A stretch of 64,000 nt of DNA, taken from the NCBI GenBank assembly GCA_963728825.1, contig CAVSLA010000003.1, forward strand, positions 208,361 through 272,360, given 5' to 3'. Below are positions 3 to 59,269 of the stretch, one piece after another. Within the stretch, counting starts at the first letter, position 1. Each line of letters opens with the position of its first letter. Under the pieces are notes generated by a model. That model was given only the letters and a program-made list of their open reading frames with translations, had not been told where the DNA came from and made no database searches. The DNA is from an uncultured Acidobacteriota bacterium (lineage in GTDB: Bacteria > Acidobacteriota > Vicinamibacteria > Vicinamibacterales > CAVVIG01). A program made the translations under genes and the position numbers.

Positions 3-200
3 TACGTCTTCTTCACGACCGCCGGCCGGGCCCTGGTCGCCGTCAGCCGCGTCCACCCGTCTCGGTTCCTGATCGTGTTCGGCTTTCTGATGATGATCGT
101 CGCGATCCTGAGGTGGCACCGCCTGCGTACCTGGGGCCGCTTCCCGCTGATGTTCGACGACGACCCGCCGGAATTCGCGCAACCGATTCAGCTGCGGTAG
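3..200 (+). CDS. C-terminal fragment of a membrane protein (start lies outside the window)
   Basis: The frame is open from the window edge to TAG at 198-200. It contains the hydrophobic segment RFLIVFGFLMMIVAILRW and has GC-rich third codon positions. Confidence 0.4.
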   Translation, partial: YVFFTTAGRALVAVSRVHPSRFLIVFGFLMMIVAILRWHRLRTWGRFPLMFDDDPPEFAQPIQLR

Positions 201-5168: not shown

Positions 5169-7106
5169 GTGGTTGCGTTCACCCCATATGTAACTCCCGA
5201 AAGGGAGCTGCCCGAATCGACCGTCAAAGCGTACGTACCGGGCATCCTCTTCGGCATCATTTTCGGTGCGGCCAACGCCTACCTTGGCCTCCGCGCCGGC
5301 CTGACGATCTCAACATCCATCCCGATCGCCGTCATGACGGTCGCTGTCTACAAAGTGCTGGCGGCAGCTGGCCAGCGCGGCAACATCCTCGAAGCCAACA
5401 TGTCACAGGCGATCGGCTCTGCGTCGAGCTCGGTCGCCAGCGGCGTCATCTTCACGATCCCGGCGCTGTTTCTCTGGAACCTCGATCCGACGGTCCTGCA
5501 GATGACGCTGCTGGCCCTGGGCGGCGGTCTGCTCGGCGTGCTGTTCATGATTCCGTTGCGCCGGCTGCTGATCGAAAGGGAGCACGGCGCGCTGCCCTAT
5601 CCGGAAGGAACGGCGTGCGCCGAAGTCCTCATTGCCAGCGAGGCCGGCGGCGCGCGGTCGCAGGGCGTGTTCGCGGGGCTCGGCGTCGGCGCGCTGTTCA
5701 AAACGCTGGCCGGCGGTGCCCAGGTGTTTCCTGACGGGTTCGAAACGCACGTGCCGCTGCTGAACAAGGGACAGATCGGCAGCGAGATCTCAGCGGCGCT
5801 GTTCGGCGTCGGCTACATCCTGGGGCCGAGGGTCGGCACGGTGATGGTGAGCGGCGGCCTGCTCTCGTCGCTCGTGATCATTCCGATCATTGCCACCTGG
5901 GGCGAGGCGCGGACCACGCCGTTCTTTCCCGAGACGTCGCTGACCATCGCCGAGATGAGCGCCAGTCAGATCTGGTCGCGTTACGTCCGTTATATCGGCG
6001 CCGGCGCGGTGGCCACGGCCGGTATCATCACCCTGATTCGCAGCATCCCGACGATGCTCGAGAGTTTCCGGATGGGCGCCGAGCAGATGCGGGCCCGCGG
6101 CGGCGGACACCAGGCGGCGCCGCGGACGTCGCGCGATCTGCCGTTCAGCGTGACCATCGTCGGAGCGATCGGCGTGTTCCTGATGCTGGCGCTCGTGCCA
6201 CAGGCGTTCGGTGCGCTCGACAGCATCGTTCATCGTTCGGTGGCGGCGCTCTGCGTCGTCATCTTTGCGTTCTTCTTCGTCACCGTCTCGGCGCGGATTG
6301 TCGGTCTGGTCGGCGTGACGTCGAACCCCACCAGCGGCATGACGATCGCCTCGCTGCTCGGCACCTCGGCGGTCTTTCTCGCCATGGGCTGGACCGGCGA
6401 CGCGGGAAAGATGGGGGCGCTGACGGTCGGTACCGTCGTCGCGATTGCCGCGTCGATCGCCGGAGACATGTCGCAGGACCTGAAGACCGGCTATCTGGTG
6501 GGCGGCACGCCGGATCGCATCCAGATTGGCGAGCTCGTCGGGATTCTGACGTCGGCCGTCTTCGTCTGCCTCACGGTCGTCCTGCTCGACCGCGCCTACG
6601 GCTTCGGCACGGCGGAGCTGCCCGCGCCGCAGGCGACGTTGATGAAGCTGGTCATCGAGGGAGTGCTCGACAACCTGCTGCCGTGGACGCTGGTCGCCAT
6701 CGGCATCGGCATTTCGCTGATCGCGCTGACGCTTCGGCTGCCGGTCCTGGCGTTCGCGGTCGGCGTCTATCTCCCGGTTGCGACGATGGTGCCGATCTTC
6801 CTGGGCAGCATGCTTCGGCTGCTGGCGGAGCGTCGGGCGACCAGCAGCGACGATAAGGCCGCGCGTATCGAACGGGGCACGCTGCTCGGCTCAGGCCTGG
6901 TCGCCGGCGAGGGGCTGGTCGGCGTCGCAATCGCCGGAGTCGCATTTTTTCTCGGGCGTGCGCCGGCCGGGCTGGGCTCCGAGTGGGCTGGCTGGGCGGC
7001 GCAGTGGATTTCGCTCGCCGCCTTCGCATTGCTGGCGATCTGGTTCTGGCGGTCGATCACCGCTCGGGACTCGGGACTTGCGGCCGGGGATTCGCGGAGG
7101 GTCTGA
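5169..7106 (+). CDS. OPT-family oligopeptide transporter
   Basis: 645 aa (GTG start) with many TM helices. The N-terminal pattern RELPESTVKAYVPGILFGIIFGAANAYLGLRAGLT is typical of bacterial OPT proteins. Confidence 0.85.
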   Translation: MVAFTPYVTPERELPESTVKAYVPGILFGIIFGAANAYLGLRAGLTISTSIPIAVMTVAVYKVLAAAGQRGNILEANMSQAIGSASSSVASGVIFTIPALFLWNLDPTVLQMTLLALGGGLLGVLFMIPLRRLLIEREHGALPYPEGTACAEVLIASEAGGARSQGVFAGLGVGALFKTLAGGAQVFPDGFETHVPLLNKGQIGSEISAALFGVGYILGPRVGTVMVSGGLLSSLVIIPIIATWGEARTTPFFPETSLTIAEMSASQIWSRYVRYIGAGAVATAGIITLIRSIPTMLESFRMGAEQMRARGGGHQAAPRTSRDLPFSVTIVGAIGVFLMLALVPQAFGALDSIVHRSVAALCVVIFAFFFVTVSARIVGLVGVTSNPTSGMTIASLLGTSAVFLAMGWTGDAGKMGALTVGTVVAIAASIAGDMSQDLKTGYLVGGTPDRIQIGELVGILTSAVFVCLTVVLLDRAYGFGTAELPAPQATLMKLVIEGVLDNLLPWTLVAIGIGISLIALTLRLPVLAFAVGVYLPVATMVPIFLGSMLRLLAERRATSSDDKAARIERGTLLGSGLVAGEGLVGVAIAGVAFFLGRAPAGLGSEWAGWAAQWISLAAFALLAIWFWRSITARDSGLAAGDSRRV

Positions 7107-7320: not shown

Positions 7321-8250
7321 CTACTGCGTCGGGCCGCCTTTCACATTCACCCTGACGATCGCTGAGGTCGAGCAGCACTGACCGCTGCCGCCTTCACCGG
7401 CGCCCTCGATCGCGTTGACGCGCAGCCAGTATTCGCCGGGCGCTGCGAACGTCGCGGTGGTCGTGACCGTTTCGCCGGCGGCGTTGGTCACCGGCAGTGA
7501 CTCGTTGGCGATCTTCACCGCCCCCGCGCCGCGATACTTGTCCCACCGAAGGTTCGCGGCGGCCGGCGGGCCGCCTCGACCCCGGCCCCGCGCGCCATCC
7601 GCATCGTCGGAACCGCGGCCCCGGCCGCGACCGCCGCCGCGCTGCGGATTCGGATCGAGCACGATCGTGTTGCCCTTGTCCATCAGCCACGTCGACAGCG
7701 TCAGCGGCTGACCGACCGCCGCGGCCATCGTCGCGTAGGTGCCCTTCGACGGGCCGGTGTGCTCCACGCCGTCCCCGATCTTGATGACCGGCGGCGTGTT
7801 GCCGGTGCCGGTGTTCAGCAACGGCTCGACGAAGTACGGCGGGTTCAGCCACGCGCTCACCGACTGCGTGATGCCGTTCGCGGTCAGCGTCCACGTGATC
7901 TTTTTCTGCCCGAAGTCCTTCGGCACCGTGATCGTGAACATCCGGTTGTTGCGCTCCGGCAGGAAGTGCGTCGGCTGTCCCTGATCCGCGTTGCCCGGCT
8001 CGATGCGGTTGTTCGGTCCGACCGGGATGTCGAAGGATTGCTTCGAATTGCGGTTGTGATACCCGAAGAGGATCGACGAGGTGCCGTCCGGATTCGTGTA
8101 CCAACCCTCGAGGTACGGGAAAACCGCCTCGCCCTTGCTGCCGAGCGGCTCGAGCGGCAGCTGCCCGGCCTGTCCGGCGGACAACACGACCCAACTGGCA
8201 AGCGCGATCATTCCCGTCAGACCTGCCACCGCAGACCTCGACGCGCGCAT
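7321..8250 (-). CDS. secreted protein of unknown function, partner of the heme/PHM-like gene (paralog of 56699-57736)
   Basis: AGGAGG precedes the ATG at 8250 (the ORF is open to GTG 8265), and there is a signal peptide. Blocks shared with the paralog: LPLEPLG..GEAV, LFGYxNRN, DIPxGPNNxxEP, GQPTHFL, WKNPPY/WLNPPY. It also has an RG/G-rich tract and a C-terminal PGEYxxxV.A..G..G....QCC.TSA.VRV.VK. Confidence 0.8.
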   Translation of the reverse strand: MRASRSAVAGLTGMIALASWVVLSAGQAGQLPLEPLGSKGEAVFPYLEGWYTNPDGTSSILFGYHNRNSKQSFDIPVGPNNRIEPGNADQGQPTHFLPERNNRMFTITVPKDFGQKKITWTLTANGITQSVSAWLNPPYFVEPLLNTGTGNTPPVIKIGDGVEHTGPSKGTYATMAAAVGQPLTLSTWLMDKGNTIVLDPNPQRGGGRGRGRGSDDADGARGRGRGGPPAAANLRWDKYRGAGAVKIANESLPVTNAAGETVTTTATFAAPGEYWLRVNAIEGAGEGGSGQCCSTSAIVRVNVKGGPTQ

Positions 8251-8320
8251 CGGATCCTCCTGCACTGATCAGAGCGAAAAAGCCAGTCACCACCCAAACG
8301 GTTGATGACTGGCGGAGGAC

Positions 8321-8362
8321 TATCGACTGGCGACTATCGACTATCGACTGTCGACTGACGAC
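8321..8362. repeat. tandem heptamer array (TNNCGAC x6)
   Basis: The units are tatcgac tggcgac tatcgac tatcgac tgtcgac tgacgac. The array is preceded by the hairpin ccagtca(8283-8289)/tgactgg(8305-8311). Confidence 0.85.
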
Positions 8363-8366
8363 TGAA

Positions 8367-9716
8367 TTACTGCTGCTGTTGCGTATTTCTCGCCTCGCGC
8401 GCCTTCCTGGCGGCGAGCTCCGCTTCGTAGTCCGCATCGGACATGTAGGTCACGTTGACCCAGGCGTGGGCCATCTCGTCGACCGTCCGGCCGCCGCCGC
8501 CGACCCAGGTATTCGGCTCGGGGTTCGACTTCTTGGCGCTCGTGTTGTCGTGCCACGCGGTGATCTTGAGGATCGTCCCTTTCGGCAGGACCGGCGCTGC
8601 TTCGTCGGTATAGACGTACGAGTTATGCCAGTTGAAGTTGAAGTCGGCCACGTGGCTGAGGATCTGCGTCTGGCCGTTCGGCAGAATCGCTTCCATCGAC
8701 ATCGCTTTGCCGCGCAGGTGCATGTGCGGCTGGAAGCTCTCGACGCGGCCCGCGCGCCGCATCACGAAGAACCCCTGCGTCGCCTTGACGCTGTTGGCTG
8801 GAATGTCGATGCCATCGGTGCCCATCAGATGCAGCGTCTGGCGGTACTTCGGTTCCTGGCCTTTGGGATAGAAGTAGATGCCGAGTTCCGCCGTATCGGT
8901 GATGTCCTCGCCAACCGAGGAGTAGTGGATGTCCCAGACGATCCGCGAGCCGGCGCGCATCAGCTTGCCGGTATTCGGCCGCATGATCTCGCCCTGCTTG
9001 CCGACCGCCCATTCCATGAATGTGCCGGTGTTGGCGAAGTCGCCCAGATCGAACGCGGCGGGACCGCTCTGCTGCTGCTGATCCGGCTCCGGCTCCTCCT
9101 GCTGGAGCCGCGCGATTGCATGATGCGTGACCTCGCGTCCCTTCACCGTGGAGGGACGAATCTCGATCGCACGCACCCAGCGATCTTCGGTGAGGCCGGT
9201 CTCGACGACCGGACGCCACCAGGCATCGTTGGCCCGCGCCTTTTGCGTCCAGGGCGTCGACTTGATCACCAGGTCGGGCGCGCCGCCGAACAGCTCGGCG
9301 AAGTTCCATTTGGACTCGTCGGGCCACTGCACCGGCGGCGGCATGTCGGCCGGGTTGCCGCGCGGCGCGCCGCCATCGACCCAGCGACCGATCGTTGCGA
9401 TCTGCTCGTCGCTGAGCGACCGGTCGTTCTTGAATTCCTGAATGCCGACGGTTTTGTCGATATGCCACGGCGGCATCTGGCGCGTTTCGACGCGCTGCTT
9501 GATCGAACGCACCCACGGGCGGACGGCCTCGAAGGTGACGAGCGACATCGGCGCAATCGAACCCGGCCGATGGCACGCCTCGCACTTGGCCTGGAAGATG
9601 GGAGCGATGTCTTTCGTGAAGGTGGGTACGGCGTGCGTCTGCGCTGCCACGACGGCGGGCGTCGCGAACGCGAAAGCCGCGACAACGACCAGAACGAGCG
9701 TCCCTCTGCTGCGCAC
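8367..9716 (-). CDS. secreted c-type heme domain fused to a PHM/DBH-like copper monooxygenase domain
   Basis: GTG start with AAGGAG upstream, and a signal peptide. Heme motif CEACH (45-49) plus MPPWH. Copper-ligand pattern: THH(198-199), WDIH(264)Y, PH(331)MH(333)LRGK, GGGGRTVDEM(415)AHAW. The order and spacing match rat PHM as I recall it. Confidence 0.8.
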   Translation of the reverse strand: MRSRGTLVLVVVAAFAFATPAVVAAQTHAVPTFTKDIAPIFQAKCEACHRPGSIAPMSLVTFEAVRPWVRSIKQRVETRQMPPWHIDKTVGIQEFKNDRSLSDEQIATIGRWVDGGAPRGNPADMPPPVQWPDESKWNFAELFGGAPDLVIKSTPWTQKARANDAWWRPVVETGLTEDRWVRAIEIRPSTVKGREVTHHAIARLQQEEPEPDQQQQSGPAAFDLGDFANTGTFMEWAVGKQGEIMRPNTGKLMRAGSRIVWDIHYSSVGEDITDTAELGIYFYPKGQEPKYRQTLHLMGTDGIDIPANSVKATQGFFVMRRAGRVESFQPHMHLRGKAMSMEAILPNGQTQILSHVADFNFNWHNSYVYTDEAAPVLPKGTILKITAWHDNTSAKKSNPEPNTWVGGGGRTVDEMAHAWVNVTYMSDADYEAELAARKAREARNTQQQQ

Positions 9717-9935: not shown

Positions 9936-10352
9936 GTGTACGCTAACGTTCTGGCTGATCAACCGGAGATTGTCGAGCAGGCCGGCGCCGTCGCGATACG
10001 TGGCAGCGGACCGGAGACTGAAGTGCTGATCATCCGTGCCAAAAAGGATCCCCGGCACTGGGTCTTTCCGAAAGGCCACATCGAGAAAGGCGAACGTCCC
10101 GCCGAAGCCGCGCTCCGCGAATTGCGCGAGGAAGCCGGCGTGGACGGAGAGATCGGCCGGGTTCTCGGCACGTCGACGTTCAAGTCAGGCCACGAGCACG
10201 TGCGGGTAGCGTACTTCCTCGTCAGATTCACGCGAACGGTCCCGCCAGCTGAATCGCGCGAGCTGCAGTGGCAATCGGTCAGCGAGGCCCGCCGGCTCCT
10301 GACCTTCGAGGATGCGCGGCAGCTGCTCGACGAGGTGGCGCGGGACGTGTGA
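9936..10352 (+). CDS. NUDIX hydrolase
   Basis: Nudix box GHIEKGERPAEAALRELREEAGV. Confidence 0.85.
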   Translation: MYANVLADQPEIVEQAGAVAIRGSGPETEVLIIRAKKDPRHWVFPKGHIEKGERPAEAALRELREEAGVDGEIGRVLGTSTFKSGHEHVRVAYFLVRFTRTVPPAESRELQWQSVSEARRLLTFEDARQLLDEVARDV

Positions 10353-56100: not shown

Positions 56101-56646
56101 CTACTTCGGGAGCTGTTTGATGCCCAGCGCCTTCAGCTTGTTCGCGAGGTCCGCGCCGGCCGTGCCGGCGGCGACCGCTTTGTCGATATCGAGAATCTTG
56201 CCGTCCGGCCCGATGTAGAAGGTCCAGCGGCGCGCCAGACCCGTGGGCCCGAGCACGCCGTACTTCGTGGCCACTTCCTTCGACGGATCGCTCAACAGCG
56301 GAAAGTCCGCGCTTTCCTTTTCCGCGAACGCCTTGTTCTCCTCCGGCTTGTCGACGCTGATCATGAAATACGCGACGTCGAAACCGCGAATCACCGGGCC
56401 GTTGTCACGCAACGACCTGCATTCGGCGGTTCAACCAGCGGTGAACGCCTTCGGAAACCAGGCGAGGACAATCGCCTTTCCCTTCAACCCCGCGAGCGAA
56501 TACGTTTTGCCATCGGTGCCCGGCAGATTGAAATCCGGGGCGGCATCGCCCGCCTTCAGCTCCTGTGCCAGCGCGGGCTTGGCCGACAGCAGGCCGCCGG
56601 CAATGGTGACTGCCAGCGACAACATGCGAAGTGCTTGTTTCATCAC
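56101..56646 (-). CDS. secreted BCP-type peroxiredoxin with in-frame TGA at the peroxidatic Cys position (Sec candidate or nonsense mutation)
   Basis: Track ORFs 56431-56646 and 56101-56412 are in the same frame. The junction reads WFPKAFTAG-TGA-TAECRSLRD, compared with E. coli BCP ..TPGCTVQACGLRD. Confidence 0.7.
56397..56417 (-). other. candidate bacterial SECIS-like hairpin
   Basis: On the mRNA: ggucguug-cguga-caacggcc, an 8-bp stem (one G-U pair) starting 13 nt after the UGA. Confidence 0.35.
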
Positions 56647-56698: not shown

Positions 56699-57736
56699 CT
56701 ACTTCACGGTGACTCGTACTCGGGCGCTGGTCCAGCAGCACTGATCGCCGCCGCCGCCCGGACCCGACTGATCGTTGGCCGTGACGAGAATCGCGTACTC
56801 GCCCGGCTGGCTGAATGTGGCTTGCGTCGTCGCGCGCATCACGAGCTTCGCGTCGCGCTTGTTGAACAGCAACGACCGCTCCTCGGAGAACTTGATATCG
56901 GCGGGGCCACGATACCTCTGCCACAGGATCGTGACGTCACCGCGCGGCTCGTTACCGCGCCCGCCGCCACCACCACCACCACCGCCGCCCCCTCCGCCGC
57001 CACCGCGCCCGCCACGTCCGCCGGCAGCAGCGCCAGCCGCCGCCGGATCGCCGCCACGGCCGCCGCGGCCGCCGGCGTCGGCAGTCGTCGTCGCGGGGGG
57101 AGGAGCGCCGCGCCCTTCTGGTTCATCGGACGGCTTGTCGGTGACCCACAGGTTCAGCGCCAGCGGCTGATTCACGGTGGCGGTCAGTGTCTGGGACCAT
57201 CCGGTCACCGGACCCTGCAGCGCCGGACCGGTCTCGGTGAAACGCATCACCGGCGTCTCGTTGCCGTTCGCCGTGTTCTGATAAAAGTCGATCCAGTACG
57301 GAGGGTTTTTCCAGCCGGTGACCTGCGTCTTCTGACCGTTGGCGTTGATCGTCCACGTGTAGCGCTTGTTGCCGAAATCCTTCGGCACCTCGATCGCGAA
57401 CACTCCGTACTGCCGGCGCGACAGGAAATGCGTCGGCTGGCCGAGGTCCGGTCCGTTCGGCTCCAGCGTGTTATTAGGGCCAATCGGAATATCGAGAATC
57501 TGATCCTGGTTCCGGTTGTAGTAGCCGAAGAGGAGAACTTCCTTGCCGTCCTTGGTGGGACCCCATCCTTCGAAGGCCGCGTAGACAGCCTCGCCGCGAA
57601 CGCCGAGCGGCTCGAGCGGCAACGGCGCCGGCGACTGGGGTGGCTGCTGCGCCTGACCCGCACCGACGATGACCCAACTTCCGAGAGCACCCACTACCGC
57701 CAGGGCCGCGATCGCGGACCGAGACGCCGCCTGCAT
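56699..57736 (-). CDS. secreted partner protein, paralog of 7321-8250, with (G)16-containing RGG tract
   Basis: GGAGG upstream and a signal peptide. It shares blocks with the paralog and has the same C-terminal PGEYAILVTANDQSGPGGGGDQCCWTSARVRVTVK. Confidence 0.8.
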   Translation of the reverse strand: MQAASRSAIAALAVVGALGSWVIVGAGQAQQPPQSPAPLPLEPLGVRGEAVYAAFEGWGPTKDGKEVLLFGYYNRNQDQILDIPIGPNNTLEPNGPDLGQPTHFLSRRQYGVFAIEVPKDFGNKRYTWTINANGQKTQVTGWKNPPYWIDFYQNTANGNETPVMRFTETGPALQGPVTGWSQTLTATVNQPLALNLWVTDKPSDEPEGRGAPPPATTTADAGGRGGRGGDPAAAGAAAGGRGGRGGGGGGGGGGGGGGGRGNEPRGDVTILWQRYRGPADIKFSEERSLLFNKRDAKLVMRATTQATFSQPGEYAILVTANDQSGPGGGGDQCCWTSARVRVTVK

Positions 57737-57783
57737 TGCCTACCTCCGTATCCCCTGTGATGTGTGGTGGAGACGTACACAAT

Positions 57784-57838
57784 CAGTCGCCAGCCGCCAG
57801 TCACAATTTCGTGACTGAGGACTGGCGACTGGCTGGAC
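57784..57838. repeat. heptamer-periodic hairpin (cagtcgc cagccgc cagtcac / gtgactg aggactg gcgactg)
   Basis: 21-nt arms with 17/21 complementary and a 6-nt loop. It sits between the two genes of module copy 2. Confidence 0.8.
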
Positions 57839-57845
57839 AAATGAT

Positions 57846-57914
57846 GCCGGGCCTTTGAGGCCCGGCCTTAACCCTACCTGCGTGCAGCCGTCAGGCCCAA
57901 GAGGCCCGACCTAC
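57846..57914. repeat. two REP-like palindromes (GCCGGGCCT-ttg-AGGCCCGGC; GTCAGGCC-caaga-GGCCCGAC-CTAC)
   Basis: Read directly. The second overlaps the stop codon at 57911-57913. Confidence 0.65.
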
Positions 57915-59269
57915 TGCTGTTGCTGCTGTTGCTGCGTGTTGCGCTGCGTCTTCTGACGACGGGCTTCGACTTCCGCCTCGAAGTCCTTGTCTTCCAGGTA
58001 GGTCACGTTGACCCACGCGTGCGCCATCTCGTCCACCGTGCGGTCGCCGTAGCCGACCCAGACGTTCGGATCCGGGTTGGCCTTGTTGGCCGCGGTGTTG
58101 TCGTGCCACGCCGTGACCTTGATGATCGTCCCCTTCGGGAAGAGCGGCGCGGCGTCCTCGGTGAACTGATACATGTTGTGCCAGTTGAAGTTGAAGTCGG
58201 CAACGTGGCTGATGACCTGCGTCTGGCCGGTCGGCAGAATCGCTTCCATCGCCATCGCCTTGCCGCGCAGGTGCATATGCGGCTGATAGCTTTCGATGCG
58301 CCCGTTCTGCCGGAGCACGAAGAAGCCCTGGGTCATCTTGACCTGGTTTGGCGGAATGTCGACGCCGCCCGCGTTGGTGCCGCCCATCAGATGGAGCACC
58401 TGGCGGAACTTCGGCTCCTGGCCCTTCGGGTAGAAGTAGACGCCGAGCTCGGCCTGATCGGTGATGTCCTCGCCGCCATTGGAGTAGTGGATGTCCCAGA
58501 TGATCCTCGCGCCGGCCTTCATCAGCTTGCCGCTGCCCGGCCGCATGATCTCGCCCTGCTTGCCGACGGCCCATTCCATGAAGGTGCCGGCGATCGGACG
58601 GCCGTCCGGATCGAGGTTCTGCGCGAGCGGGTCGTTCTCATCCTGCTGGAGGCGCGCGATCGCGTGATGCGTAATCTTGCGGCCCTTCACCGAGCCGGGA
58701 CGAATCTCGATGGCGCGGACCCAGCGGTCTTCGGTGAGGCCGCTGTCGACCGACGGCTTCCACCACGCGTCATTCTGTCCGGCCTTGTGCGTCCACGGTG
58801 TGGACTTGACGATGAGATCGGGCTCGGTCTGACCGAACATCGCCGCGAAGTTCCAGCTCTGATCGTCGGGCCACTGCTTCGGCGCCGGCATGTCCTTCAC
58901 GTCGCCCTTCGGCGCGCCCTGATCGACCCAGCGGGCGATCGTTTCGATCTGATCGTCGTTCAGCGAGCGATCGTTGGCGAACTGCTGAATACCAACGGTC
59001 TTGTCGAGGTGCCACGGCGGCATCTGACGGGCGGTGACCCGCGTCTTGATCGAGCGCGCCCACGGACGCGACTCTTCATAACTGACAAGGGACATCGGCG
59101 CGATCGAATTCGTCCGATGGCACGCTTCGCATTTTTCCTGGAAAATCGGAGCAATGTCCTTAGTGAACGTCGGCTTCGCGACCGGCTCAGCTGCGGCCGG
59201 CGCAGCAACGACAGCGGCAAACGCCGCAGCCATCGTCGCAACCCCCAAGGCCCTCGTCATTCCTCTCAT
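57911..59269 (-). CDS. secreted c-type heme / PHM-like copper monooxygenase fusion, paralog of 8367-9716
   Basis: CEACH, MPPWH, ITHHAI, WDIHY, PHMHLRGK and RTVDEMAHAW are all retained. By eye about three quarters of positions are identical to copy 1. Confidence 0.8.
   Translation of the reverse strand: MRGMTRALGVATMAAAFAAVVAAPAAAEPVAKPTFTKDIAPIFQEKCEACHRTNSIAPMSLVSYEESRPWARSIKTRVTARQMPPWHLDKTVGIQQFANDRSLNDDQIETIARWVDQGAPKGDVKDMPAPKQWPDDQSWNFAAMFGQTEPDLIVKSTPWTHKAGQNDAWWKPSVDSGLTEDRWVRAIEIRPGSVKGRKITHHAIARLQQDENDPLAQNLDPDGRPIAGTFMEWAVGKQGEIMRPGSGKLMKAGARIIWDIHYSNGGEDITDQAELGVYFYPKGQEPKFRQVLHLMGGTNAGGVDIPPNQVKMTQGFFVLRQNGRIESYQPHMHLRGKAMAMEAILPTGQTQVISHVADFNFNWHNMYQFTEDAAPLFPKGTIIKVTAWHDNTAANKANPDPNVWVGYGDRTVDEMAHAWVNVTYLEDKDFEAEVEARRQKTQRNTQQQQQQQ

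Follow-up and report, generated by a model that had tools for sequence, protein, structure and literature searches.

A predicted heme-copper monooxygenase and its gene-linked partner family in Acidobacteriota

Two copies of a gene pair

The stretch of DNA analysed here, hereafter the window, comprises 64,000 nucleotides (nt) of contig CAVSLA010000003.1, from an uncultured bacterium of the Acidobacteriota. Twice on its minus strand it carries a gene for a putative heme-copper monooxygenase (MO) followed by a gene for an exported partner protein (Table 1), and no further copy of either gene is found within it. A previous examination of the letters alone (the sequence-only reading) had placed the four open reading frames (ORFs) of these two modules on the minus strand, with MO preceding the partner in both copies, and our analysis confirmed the coordinates, the order and the strand. 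The MO paralogs, MO1 and MO2, had been judged about three quarters identical; their high identity was upheld, while the figure proved slightly too high (69% over 451 amino acids (aa), E=0, or 71% over well-aligned columns). The two partners are, as had been stated, much more diverged, with 51% identity in the N-terminal 198 aa (E=1e-63), 43% in the C-terminal 76 aa, and 48% in conserved columns. The poly-Gln tails previously read in the MOs (NTQQQQ in MO1, NTQQQQQQQ in MO2) are present, and the sequence blocks, the Arg/Gly tract and the C-terminal PGEY...QCC...V.VK segment ascribed to the partners were all found in both. One correction is due: both the poly-Gln tail and the Arg/Gly tract characterise the window's sub-clade and not the family at large. 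The idea that MOs with a poly-Gln tail go with partners that have an Arg/Gly loop was considered and rejected, as the correlation is weak (rho 0.33) and confounded by phylogeny.

Table 1. Features of the two modules and of related loci. Positions are those of the window unless a locus is named, and residue numbers are those of the protein concerned; AF2, AlphaFold2.
Feature	Position	Strand	Residues	Description	Basis
MO2	57911-59269	-	452 aa	Signal peptide, heme-c domain, two-jelly-roll copper core, C-terminal helix, poly-Gln tail	ORF, AF2, Foldseek
MO2 signal peptide			about 1-27	Sec-type, AAA-EP cleavage site	
MO2 heme-c domain			about 30-125		
MO2 CEACH heme-c attachment motif	59117-59131	-	C47-H51	C, C and H kept in 229-230 of 231 sequences	
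MO2 PHM/DBH-like catalytic core	57995-58852	-	about 140-425	Two jelly rolls	
MO2 presumed CuH ligands			H201, H202, H261		
MO2 presumed CuM ligands			H331, H333, M415		
MO2 poly-Gln tail	57914-57934	-	Q446-Q452	One sub-clade only	
MO2-partner2 intercistronic spacer	57737-57910	-		174 nt, non-coding	
Partner2	56699-57736	-	345 aa	Exported two-domain beta-sandwich protein with signal peptide	ORF, alignment, AF2, weak PKD matches
Partner2 N-domain			about 46-150	New; beta-sandwich	
Partner2 second, PKD-like domain			about 160-200 and 265-345	Split by disordered Arg/Gly loop	
Partner2 Arg/Gly-rich low-complexity insertion	56954-57124	-	about 205-261	pLDDT <50	
Partner2 vicinal Cys and Trp	56732-56740	-	C333-C334-W335	Sole Cys of mature protein	
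MO1	8367-9716	-	449 aa	MO2 paralog, same motifs, Q4 tail	
MO1-partner1 intercistronic spacer	8251-8366	-		116 nt, non-coding	
Partner1	7321-8250	-	309 aa	Divergent partner2 paralog; CCST for CCWT; extra GGPTQ tail	
TPR-type MO paralog	L070, 92-2002				
TPR-type MO paralog	L074, 10510-12855				
TPR-type MO paralog	L075, about 7500-9590				
TPR-type MO paralog	L077, 10898-12759				

For comparison, loci (prefix L) were sampled as the best 80 matches in each of two scans, one of genomes, with one genome per species, and one of metagenomes, and were counted outward from partner homologs. The metagenome scan was seeded with partners about 35% identical to those of the window; its query was the narrower of two partner alignments, the broad one being too diverse for this use.

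Similarity between the two copies at the DNA level is limited to coding sequence (78% over 1.2 kb of MO, 67% over 0.4 kb of the partner). It does not continue into the flanks, whose proteins are encoded only once in the window. Both MOs are nearer to orthologs elsewhere than to each other: MO2 is 79% identical to its counterpart at L003, and MO1 77% to that at L057, as against 71% between the copies. The closest relative of partner1 is likewise found at L057, and both genes of copy 1 thus point to the same locus; partner1 is otherwise a clustering singleton that shares no more than 53% identity with other partners. Two modules per genome also occur in several other metagenome-assembled genomes (MAGs). 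Because each copy is closer to outside orthologs than to its paralog, because partner1 follows MO1 in this respect, and because several MAGs hold two modules, the pair is, to judge by these comparisons, the product of an old duplication of the whole unit, both copies of which have been retained. The proposal that this is not a recent segmental duplication agrees with this history and with the differing flanks.

The two proteins and their families

Features of a class I c-type cytochrome are all present in MO2: a CxxCH motif (CEACH), a distal Met (M83, within MPPW) and an export signal. Met83 is likely to be the sixth heme ligand. Conservation was assessed in an alignment of 231 MOs, comprising the unfused MOs from both locus sets, 117 proteins in which partner and MO are fused, and three distant paralogs. 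The heme Cys, Cys, His and Met as well as all six candidate copper ligands are kept in 229-231 of the 231 sequences, and this invariance spans separate, fused and TPR-type relatives. Profile databases are less forthcoming. The Pfam match to Cytochrome_CBB3 is sub-threshold (19 bits against a cut-off of 27), and a faint match to Cu2_monoox_C, spanning the HxH...M stretch, is obtained for MO1 only (residues 326-420; 12.8 bits against a cut-off of 23). The MO family is nonetheless large, with more than 8000 clusters at 90% identity.

The AF2 model of MO, built on 20 homologs, has a mean predicted local distance difference test (pLDDT) score of 68. When it was compared with the PDB by Foldseek, the top 29 matches were PHM structures, followed by human DBH (4zel), with E-values across these top 30 from 4e-11 to 6e-9. 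The best was PHM 5wm0 (E=3.8e-11, template modelling (TM) score by target 0.54). Beyond PHM and DBH, matches were to generic jelly-roll capsid proteins only, and the two-jelly-roll core is thus the best and only specific structural match of MO. The copper motifs of MO read THHA, DIHY, QPHMHLRGK and VDEM, with a ligand spacing of 59/70/82. They resemble the corresponding contexts in PHM (VHHM, VHYG, VHTHHLGK and DEM), where the ligands in the rat enzyme are H107, H108 and H172 at CuH and H242, H244 and M314 at CuM, spaced 64/70/70. Both systems share the HH...H and HxH...M arrangement with similar spacing, and an extracytoplasmic location. Neither phmmer nor profile searches against the PDB gave a significant sequence link between MO and PHM, NCBIfam returned nothing, and hhalign comparisons of the MO alignment and of the 231-sequence profile with a PHM sequence were non-significant or mis-registered; the relation therefore rests on fold and motifs. 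Taken together, the kept CxxCH with its downstream Met, the Foldseek matches and the near-invariant copper motifs bear out the description of this gene as heme/PHM-like in the sequence-only reading.

Several differences from PHM and DBH are nevertheless evident. MO is bacterial, carries an N-terminal heme-c domain instead of relying on ascorbate, cytochrome b561 or DOMON, and falls below the threshold of the family profiles (PF01082/PF03712). Its cysteines are the heme CxxC pair only, and the disulfides of PHM are hence missing. The residues that anchor substrate in PHM are also replaced by Q, H or Q, and W: the positions matching R240, N316 and Y318 hold Q329 (229/231), H or Q at 417, and W419 (208/231), an equivalence set by motif alone. 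Since the carboxylate- and backbone-binding residues of PHM are replaced, we file MO as a PHM/DBH-fold copper monooxygenase and not as a peptidylglycine hydroxylase; going by these substitutions, its substrate is probably not a C-terminal glycine.

Distant MO paralogs (about 27% identity) with the same heme and copper motifs carry a C-terminal TPR-repeat domain (Table 1), and another at L068 (6967-8820, minus strand) has a different kind of C-terminal extension. As these paralogs are found no more than a few kb away from an MO-partner pair, several cytochrome c-PHM-like paralogs may be said to cluster.

The AF2 model of the partner (mean pLDDT 69) is all-beta and consists of two sandwiches. 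That the partner belongs to no known family, as previously noted, was corroborated across Pfam, which gave only a sub-threshold PKD match; NCBIfam, which gave nothing; PDB sequences, where matches were confined to Gly-rich or low-complexity linkers; and Foldseek, where the model matched only generic tandem-Ig proteins (TM about 0.2) and no enzyme. Sub-threshold PKD matches recur in the C-domain of 19 of 36 diverse members, the best at E=3.5e-4. More than 1100 homologs remain at 90% clustering, all of them named 'hypothetical', and in a 50%-identity library the family has 3186 representatives at E<1e-3, 1758 at E<1e-10 and 437 at E<1e-30. The N-domain signature (EGW, GYxNxN, PxGxxN, QPxxF) is kept among partners only about 35% identical. 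The Arg/Gly-rich insertion, by comparison, is variable or missing in most family members. Towards the C-terminus, 111 of 118 partners carry CCW(T/S), with CCF or CCL in a few homologs. Partner1 is atypical in that it lacks the Asp ahead of QCC, in addition to the CCST variant and the extended tail listed in Table 1. No His or Met is invariant in the partner alignments.

Three sequences with unusual architectures, each a singleton cluster and treated here as anecdotal, extend this picture. P0380 (983 aa, from an ENA metagenome) contains seven tandem cores of the partner N-domain (FGYxNxN ... PVGxxNR ... DRGQPTxF) followed by DUF11, without an MO domain; the partner N-domain is therefore also found as a repeated unit within a surface-type protein. 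P0261 (558 aa, from a JGI metagenome) is a full-length partner, including CCWT, with two C-terminal cupin domains, while P0340 joins the partner N-domain to a CuM domain.

Gene linkage and the role of the partner

The genome loci, almost all of them from Acidobacteriota (Vicinamibacterales, Terriglobia, Bryobacterales), have MO directly upstream of the partner on the same strand in 76 of the 78 cases with room for it. Exceptions were one locus with the reverse order and one with no MO. An adjacent, co-oriented MO was present at every informative metagenome locus (68/68; 40 upstream, 28 downstream), the other 12 of the 80 being cut by contig ends. Over both scans, a partner homolog adjoins a co-oriented MO, in either order, in 145 of 146 informative loci. 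The question of whether partner orthologs are always adjacent to PHM-like genes, raised in the sequence-only reading, can thus be answered with adjacency in 77 of 78 genome loci and 68 of 68 metagenome loci. No third gene is conserved with the pair: the recurrent neighbours, an ABC-2 transporter, RmuC and a DapA-like gene, occur in at most 17 of 80 loci and reflect sub-clade synteny, and among the neighbours examined there was no conserved pathway and no other conserved copper-handling gene. Pairwise distances of MO and partner correlate (r=0.80), with the partner evolving faster (mean distance 0.47 vs 0.33). A number of contigs that carry the module, which is otherwise confined to Acidobacteriota, with 45-53% partner identity, bear the record titles Bifidobacterium, Bifidobacteriaceae, Acidimicrobiia or Cyanobacteriota (L008, L014, L018, L026, L031, L041, L050, L055) and are likely to be mislabelled or mis-binned.

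In some lineages the two genes are one. Fusions of partner and MO, 680-700 aa long and covering the full query, form at least 120 distinct clusters at 90% identity. Their order is signal peptide, partner, a linker of 10-30 residues, cytochrome c and PHM-like core, with no second signal peptide. The fusions constitute a deep sister clade, drawn from many independent contigs and sources including Vicinamibacterales MAGs at NCBI; compared with the window proteins, the MO part is about 45% and the partner part about 32% identical, and all motifs are kept. The adjacency counts and this large natural fusion family lend strong support to the claim that the two genes form a conserved module with functional coupling. 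Because the pair is strictly conserved and is fused in some lineages, MO and partner almost certainly function as a single unit, and we hold with high confidence that they act together in the same extracytoplasmic compartment.

Two further observations touch on the fusions. A NUDIX hydrolase gene (9936-10352, plus strand) adjoins the MO end of copy 1, and a NUDIX hydrolase gene is also found beside the MO end of the fused gene at L081 (10212-10631) and L082 (2934-3353). This shared neighbour may be a remnant of synteny linking the unfused copy 1 to the clade of fusions. Apparent MO-partner read-through ORFs at L062 and L051 (both at about 5850-6000), by comparison, were rejected as fusions. 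They are frameshifts in the CAG run that encodes poly-Gln, in long-read MAGs, and are taken as artefacts since the partner still has a start and a signal peptide of its own; such frameshifts call for caution in the automated annotation of this family.

The reading we favour, to which we would give about an even chance of being correct, is that the pair constitutes a single exported (periplasmic or secreted) two-subunit heme-copper monooxygenase, in which the partner is a non-catalytic subunit for recognition or scaffolding. MO would be exported by the Sec route, its covalent heme c joined by a tether to a core of the PHM/DBH type in which each of two sites holds a single copper. The respiratory chain or a soluble cytochrome would supply electrons one at a time to this heme, which would reduce CuH (H201, H202, H261), and CuH would in turn reduce CuM (H331, H333, M415). 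At CuM, O2 would be activated and a C-H bond of the substrate hydroxylated. It would follow from this proposed path from heme to CuH to CuM that the cytochrome stands in for ascorbate or cytochrome b561 as the reductant of MO. The partner, with its new N-domain and its PKD-like domain, would bind MO and most likely serve in substrate recognition, targeting or scaffolding, with the invariant loop of vicinal Cys and Trp as its putative functional hot spot. We infer the metal content, the electron path, the formation of a complex and the non-catalytic role of the partner. For the last of these, support is offered by the Ig/PKD-like architecture, the absence of residues suited to metal binding, no His or Met being invariant, and the seven-fold repeats in P0380. 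The presence of a TPR domain in place of the partner in the sister MO subfamily suggests that these are interchangeable recognition modules.

Several points weigh against this reading. The physical complex of MO and partner is argued from gene linkage and fusion, and one partner homolog, at L048, has no MO within 6 kb. The mapping of the copper ligands to PHM draws on motif, spacing and fold only, with sequence profiles failing to link the two, and both AF2 models are of moderate confidence (mean pLDDT 68-69). The seven-repeat protein and the cupin fusion are singleton sequences. Invariant polar residues in the partner N-domain (E56, N74, R75, N76, N89, E92, Q100) could mark an active site, and the invariant adjacent Cys pair has no explanation in a pure scaffold model.

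This last feature is put to use in an unlikely alternative, in which the partner is the protein substrate of MO. Oxidation of a residue in its CC-W loop would yield a cofactor derived from Cys or Trp, or else a crosslink or metal site, and the matured partner would be the end product. A specific form of it, to which we assign a slightly smaller likelihood, would have CuM abstract hydrogen within the Cys-Cys-Trp loop, as a copper-dependent counterpart of MauG/MbnH maturation, with the mature partner and not MO as the functional product. MbnH/MbnP shows the same layout, one oxidising heme or metal enzyme strictly paired with one small secreted beta protein; there, conversion of a Trp in MbnP to kynurenine yields a copper site (PMC11951088). 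A likeness in layout alone, that of a two-gene periplasmic module of a heme oxidising enzyme and a small beta-rich partner of otherwise unknown family, extends to MauG/pre-MADH; in the known systems it is a Trp of the partner that is modified. MO, however, combines a single heme with a PHM fold for which two coppers are predicted, whereas MbnH is a diheme peroxidase of the MauG/CcP family, and the partner departs from MbnP in fold and in its motif, CCWT as opposed to WxW. It is in keeping with a role as substrate that the sole cysteines of the partner are adjacent, beside a Trp and near-universal, that PHM itself works on peptides, and that the TPR repeats of the sister subfamily are of a type that typically binds proteins or peptides. 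The Trp is nonetheless lost in partner1 and replaced in the few CCF or CCL homologs, and most invariant residues of the partner lie in the N-domain and not in the CC loop. It would be uneconomical, though possible, to keep a single-turnover substrate permanently fused to an enzyme of 430 aa, as the fusions of at least 120 clusters would then do. In MO-first operons, moreover, a terminator-like structured spacer often follows the MO gene, so that the partner would be no more abundant than the enzyme.

The invariant polar residues lead to a different proposal, that the partner is itself an enzyme and takes over the hydroxylated product of MO, as PAL acts after PHM in PAM; we consider this improbable. 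In vertebrates PHM and PAL are fused, while in insects they are encoded by separate genes, and the module mirrors this in coupling a presumed copper monooxygenase to a second protein that is separate or fused by lineage. The invariant set in the N-domain (E, N, R, N, N, E, D, Q, T, R) is also dense. PAL, however, is a six-bladed Zn/Ca beta-propeller lyase, while the partner is a tandem Ig-like protein, without a propeller or the Zn-binding His triad of PAL, and has no structural match to any enzyme. The seven copies of its N-domain signature in a surface-type protein, albeit a singleton, are typical of binding or structural modules. Still less probable in our estimation is a dedicated copper chaperone or metallation factor, which would load CuH and CuM of MO in the periplasm by means of the vicinal Cys. 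Periplasmic copper chaperones (CopC, PCuAC, CusF) usually adopt an Ig-like beta-sandwich, and Cys-Cys beside a Trp could bind Cu(I) in a manner akin to the cation-pi interaction of CusF; strict and sometimes fused pairing would suit such a role. Periplasmic chaperones, though, normally use Met and His, neither of which is invariant in the partner, and in contrast to CopC, PCuAC and CusF there is no conserved Met/His copper motif, leaving the adjacent Cys pair as the only conserved potential ligands. In an oxidising compartment these would likely form a vicinal disulfide, the large and highly conserved N-domain would be superfluous, and no other copper-handling gene is conserved nearby.

An equally slight probability attaches to a reassignment of MO itself as a cytochrome c-coupled copper reductase or oxidase whose small oxidant would be O2, superoxide, H2O2 or nitrite, with the partner as an accessory subunit. 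The order of heme c, electron-transfer copper and catalytic copper follows the same logic as in the tethered copper nitrite reductase (CuNiR) (PMC13324648). The lack of conserved pathway genes nearby would fit, as would the secreted peroxiredoxin-like gene that follows copy 2, but a redoxin homolog adjoins the module in only 2 of 80 loci. The fold and the His3 and His2Met ligands are, besides, those of PHM and DBH and not of cupredoxin-type reductases. A broader likeness holds with lytic polysaccharide monooxygenases (LPMOs) served by the cytochrome domain of cellobiose dehydrogenase as well as with cytochrome c-tethered CuNiR, in that a heme domain feeds single electrons to a mononuclear copper site (predicted here) and in that accessory Ig, PKD or carbohydrate-binding modules accompany extracellular oxidative enzymes. 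The sites differ, being a histidine brace or cupredoxin centre as against the PHM-type His3 and His2Met of MO, and the folds are unrelated.

No description of a bacterial cytochrome c-fused PHM-like enzyme, or of the partner, was found in the full-text literature searched, Pfam (2025), NCBIfam (June 2026) or the PDB. To our knowledge, PHM/DBH-type enzymes are known almost only from eukaryotes, with ascorbate as the electron source. New here are the occurrence in bacteria, the proposed entry of electrons through a tethered c-type cytochrome, the lack of the PHM anchoring residues, and a near-obligate partner of an undescribed family with a new N-domain. If our favoured reading of a two-subunit monooxygenase holds, these proteins would represent a very large bacterial branch of PHM/DBH with a tethered c-type cytochrome in the place of ascorbate and a near-obligate companion family. 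They would also offer a tractable bacterial system for studying long-range electron transfer from CuH to CuM with a defined one-electron donor. The findings point to an oxidative activity that is widespread and multi-copy in Acidobacteriota of soil, groundwater and marine settings, whose extracellular oxidative chemistry is poorly understood, and they provide a joint, testable annotation for two large groups of 'hypothetical proteins'.

Intercistronic spacers and the downstream redoxin gene

The spacers between MO and partner are strongly structured in both window copies. That of copy 2 (minimum free energy -85.2 kcal/mol, z=-7.9) forms three stem-loops, one of which is a terminator-like GC hairpin at 57866-57846; that of copy 1 (z=-5.1) has a hairpin and then a T5 run, and AGGAGGA lies 5 nt ahead of the ATG of partner1 at 8250. 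Folding was surveyed over loci L001-L162 in the first 110 nt past the stop of the upstream gene. In MO-first operons 35% of spacers fold far better than shuffled sequences (z < -3), compared with 0.7% of intragenic controls and 0% of partner-first operons, which suggests a frequent intercistronic hairpin in MO-first operons that acts as an attenuator or mRNA stabiliser. No Rfam family was detected in the 64 kb of the window.

Both window spacers also contain heptad-spaced CAGTCNN repeats, in tandem in copy 1. All four matches to CAGTCNNCAGTC in the 64 kb of the window fall inside the two spacers, against 0.11 expected, and clusters of at least three CAGTC occur in the window only there. The heptad motif was found in none of the spacers of 138 other loci and is therefore specific to this genome; it may co-regulate the two paralogous modules.

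Downstream of copy 2, 55 nt past the stop of partner2 and on the same strand, lies a gene for an AhpC/TSA peroxiredoxin with a signal peptide (56101-56643, minus strand). Its reading frame is interrupted by a TGA at 56433-56431, exactly at the position of the peroxidatic Cys (WFPKAFTAG-TGA-TAEC). No tRNA gene was found within the window. Directly 3' of the TGA is a hairpin of -25.4 kcal/mol (z=-1.95), and with Cys at the TGA, the 180-aa product matches PF00578 at E=2.5e-32 over positions 2-122 of the 124 in the profile. The gene is a candidate for a selenocysteine enzyme or, alternatively, for a pseudogene.

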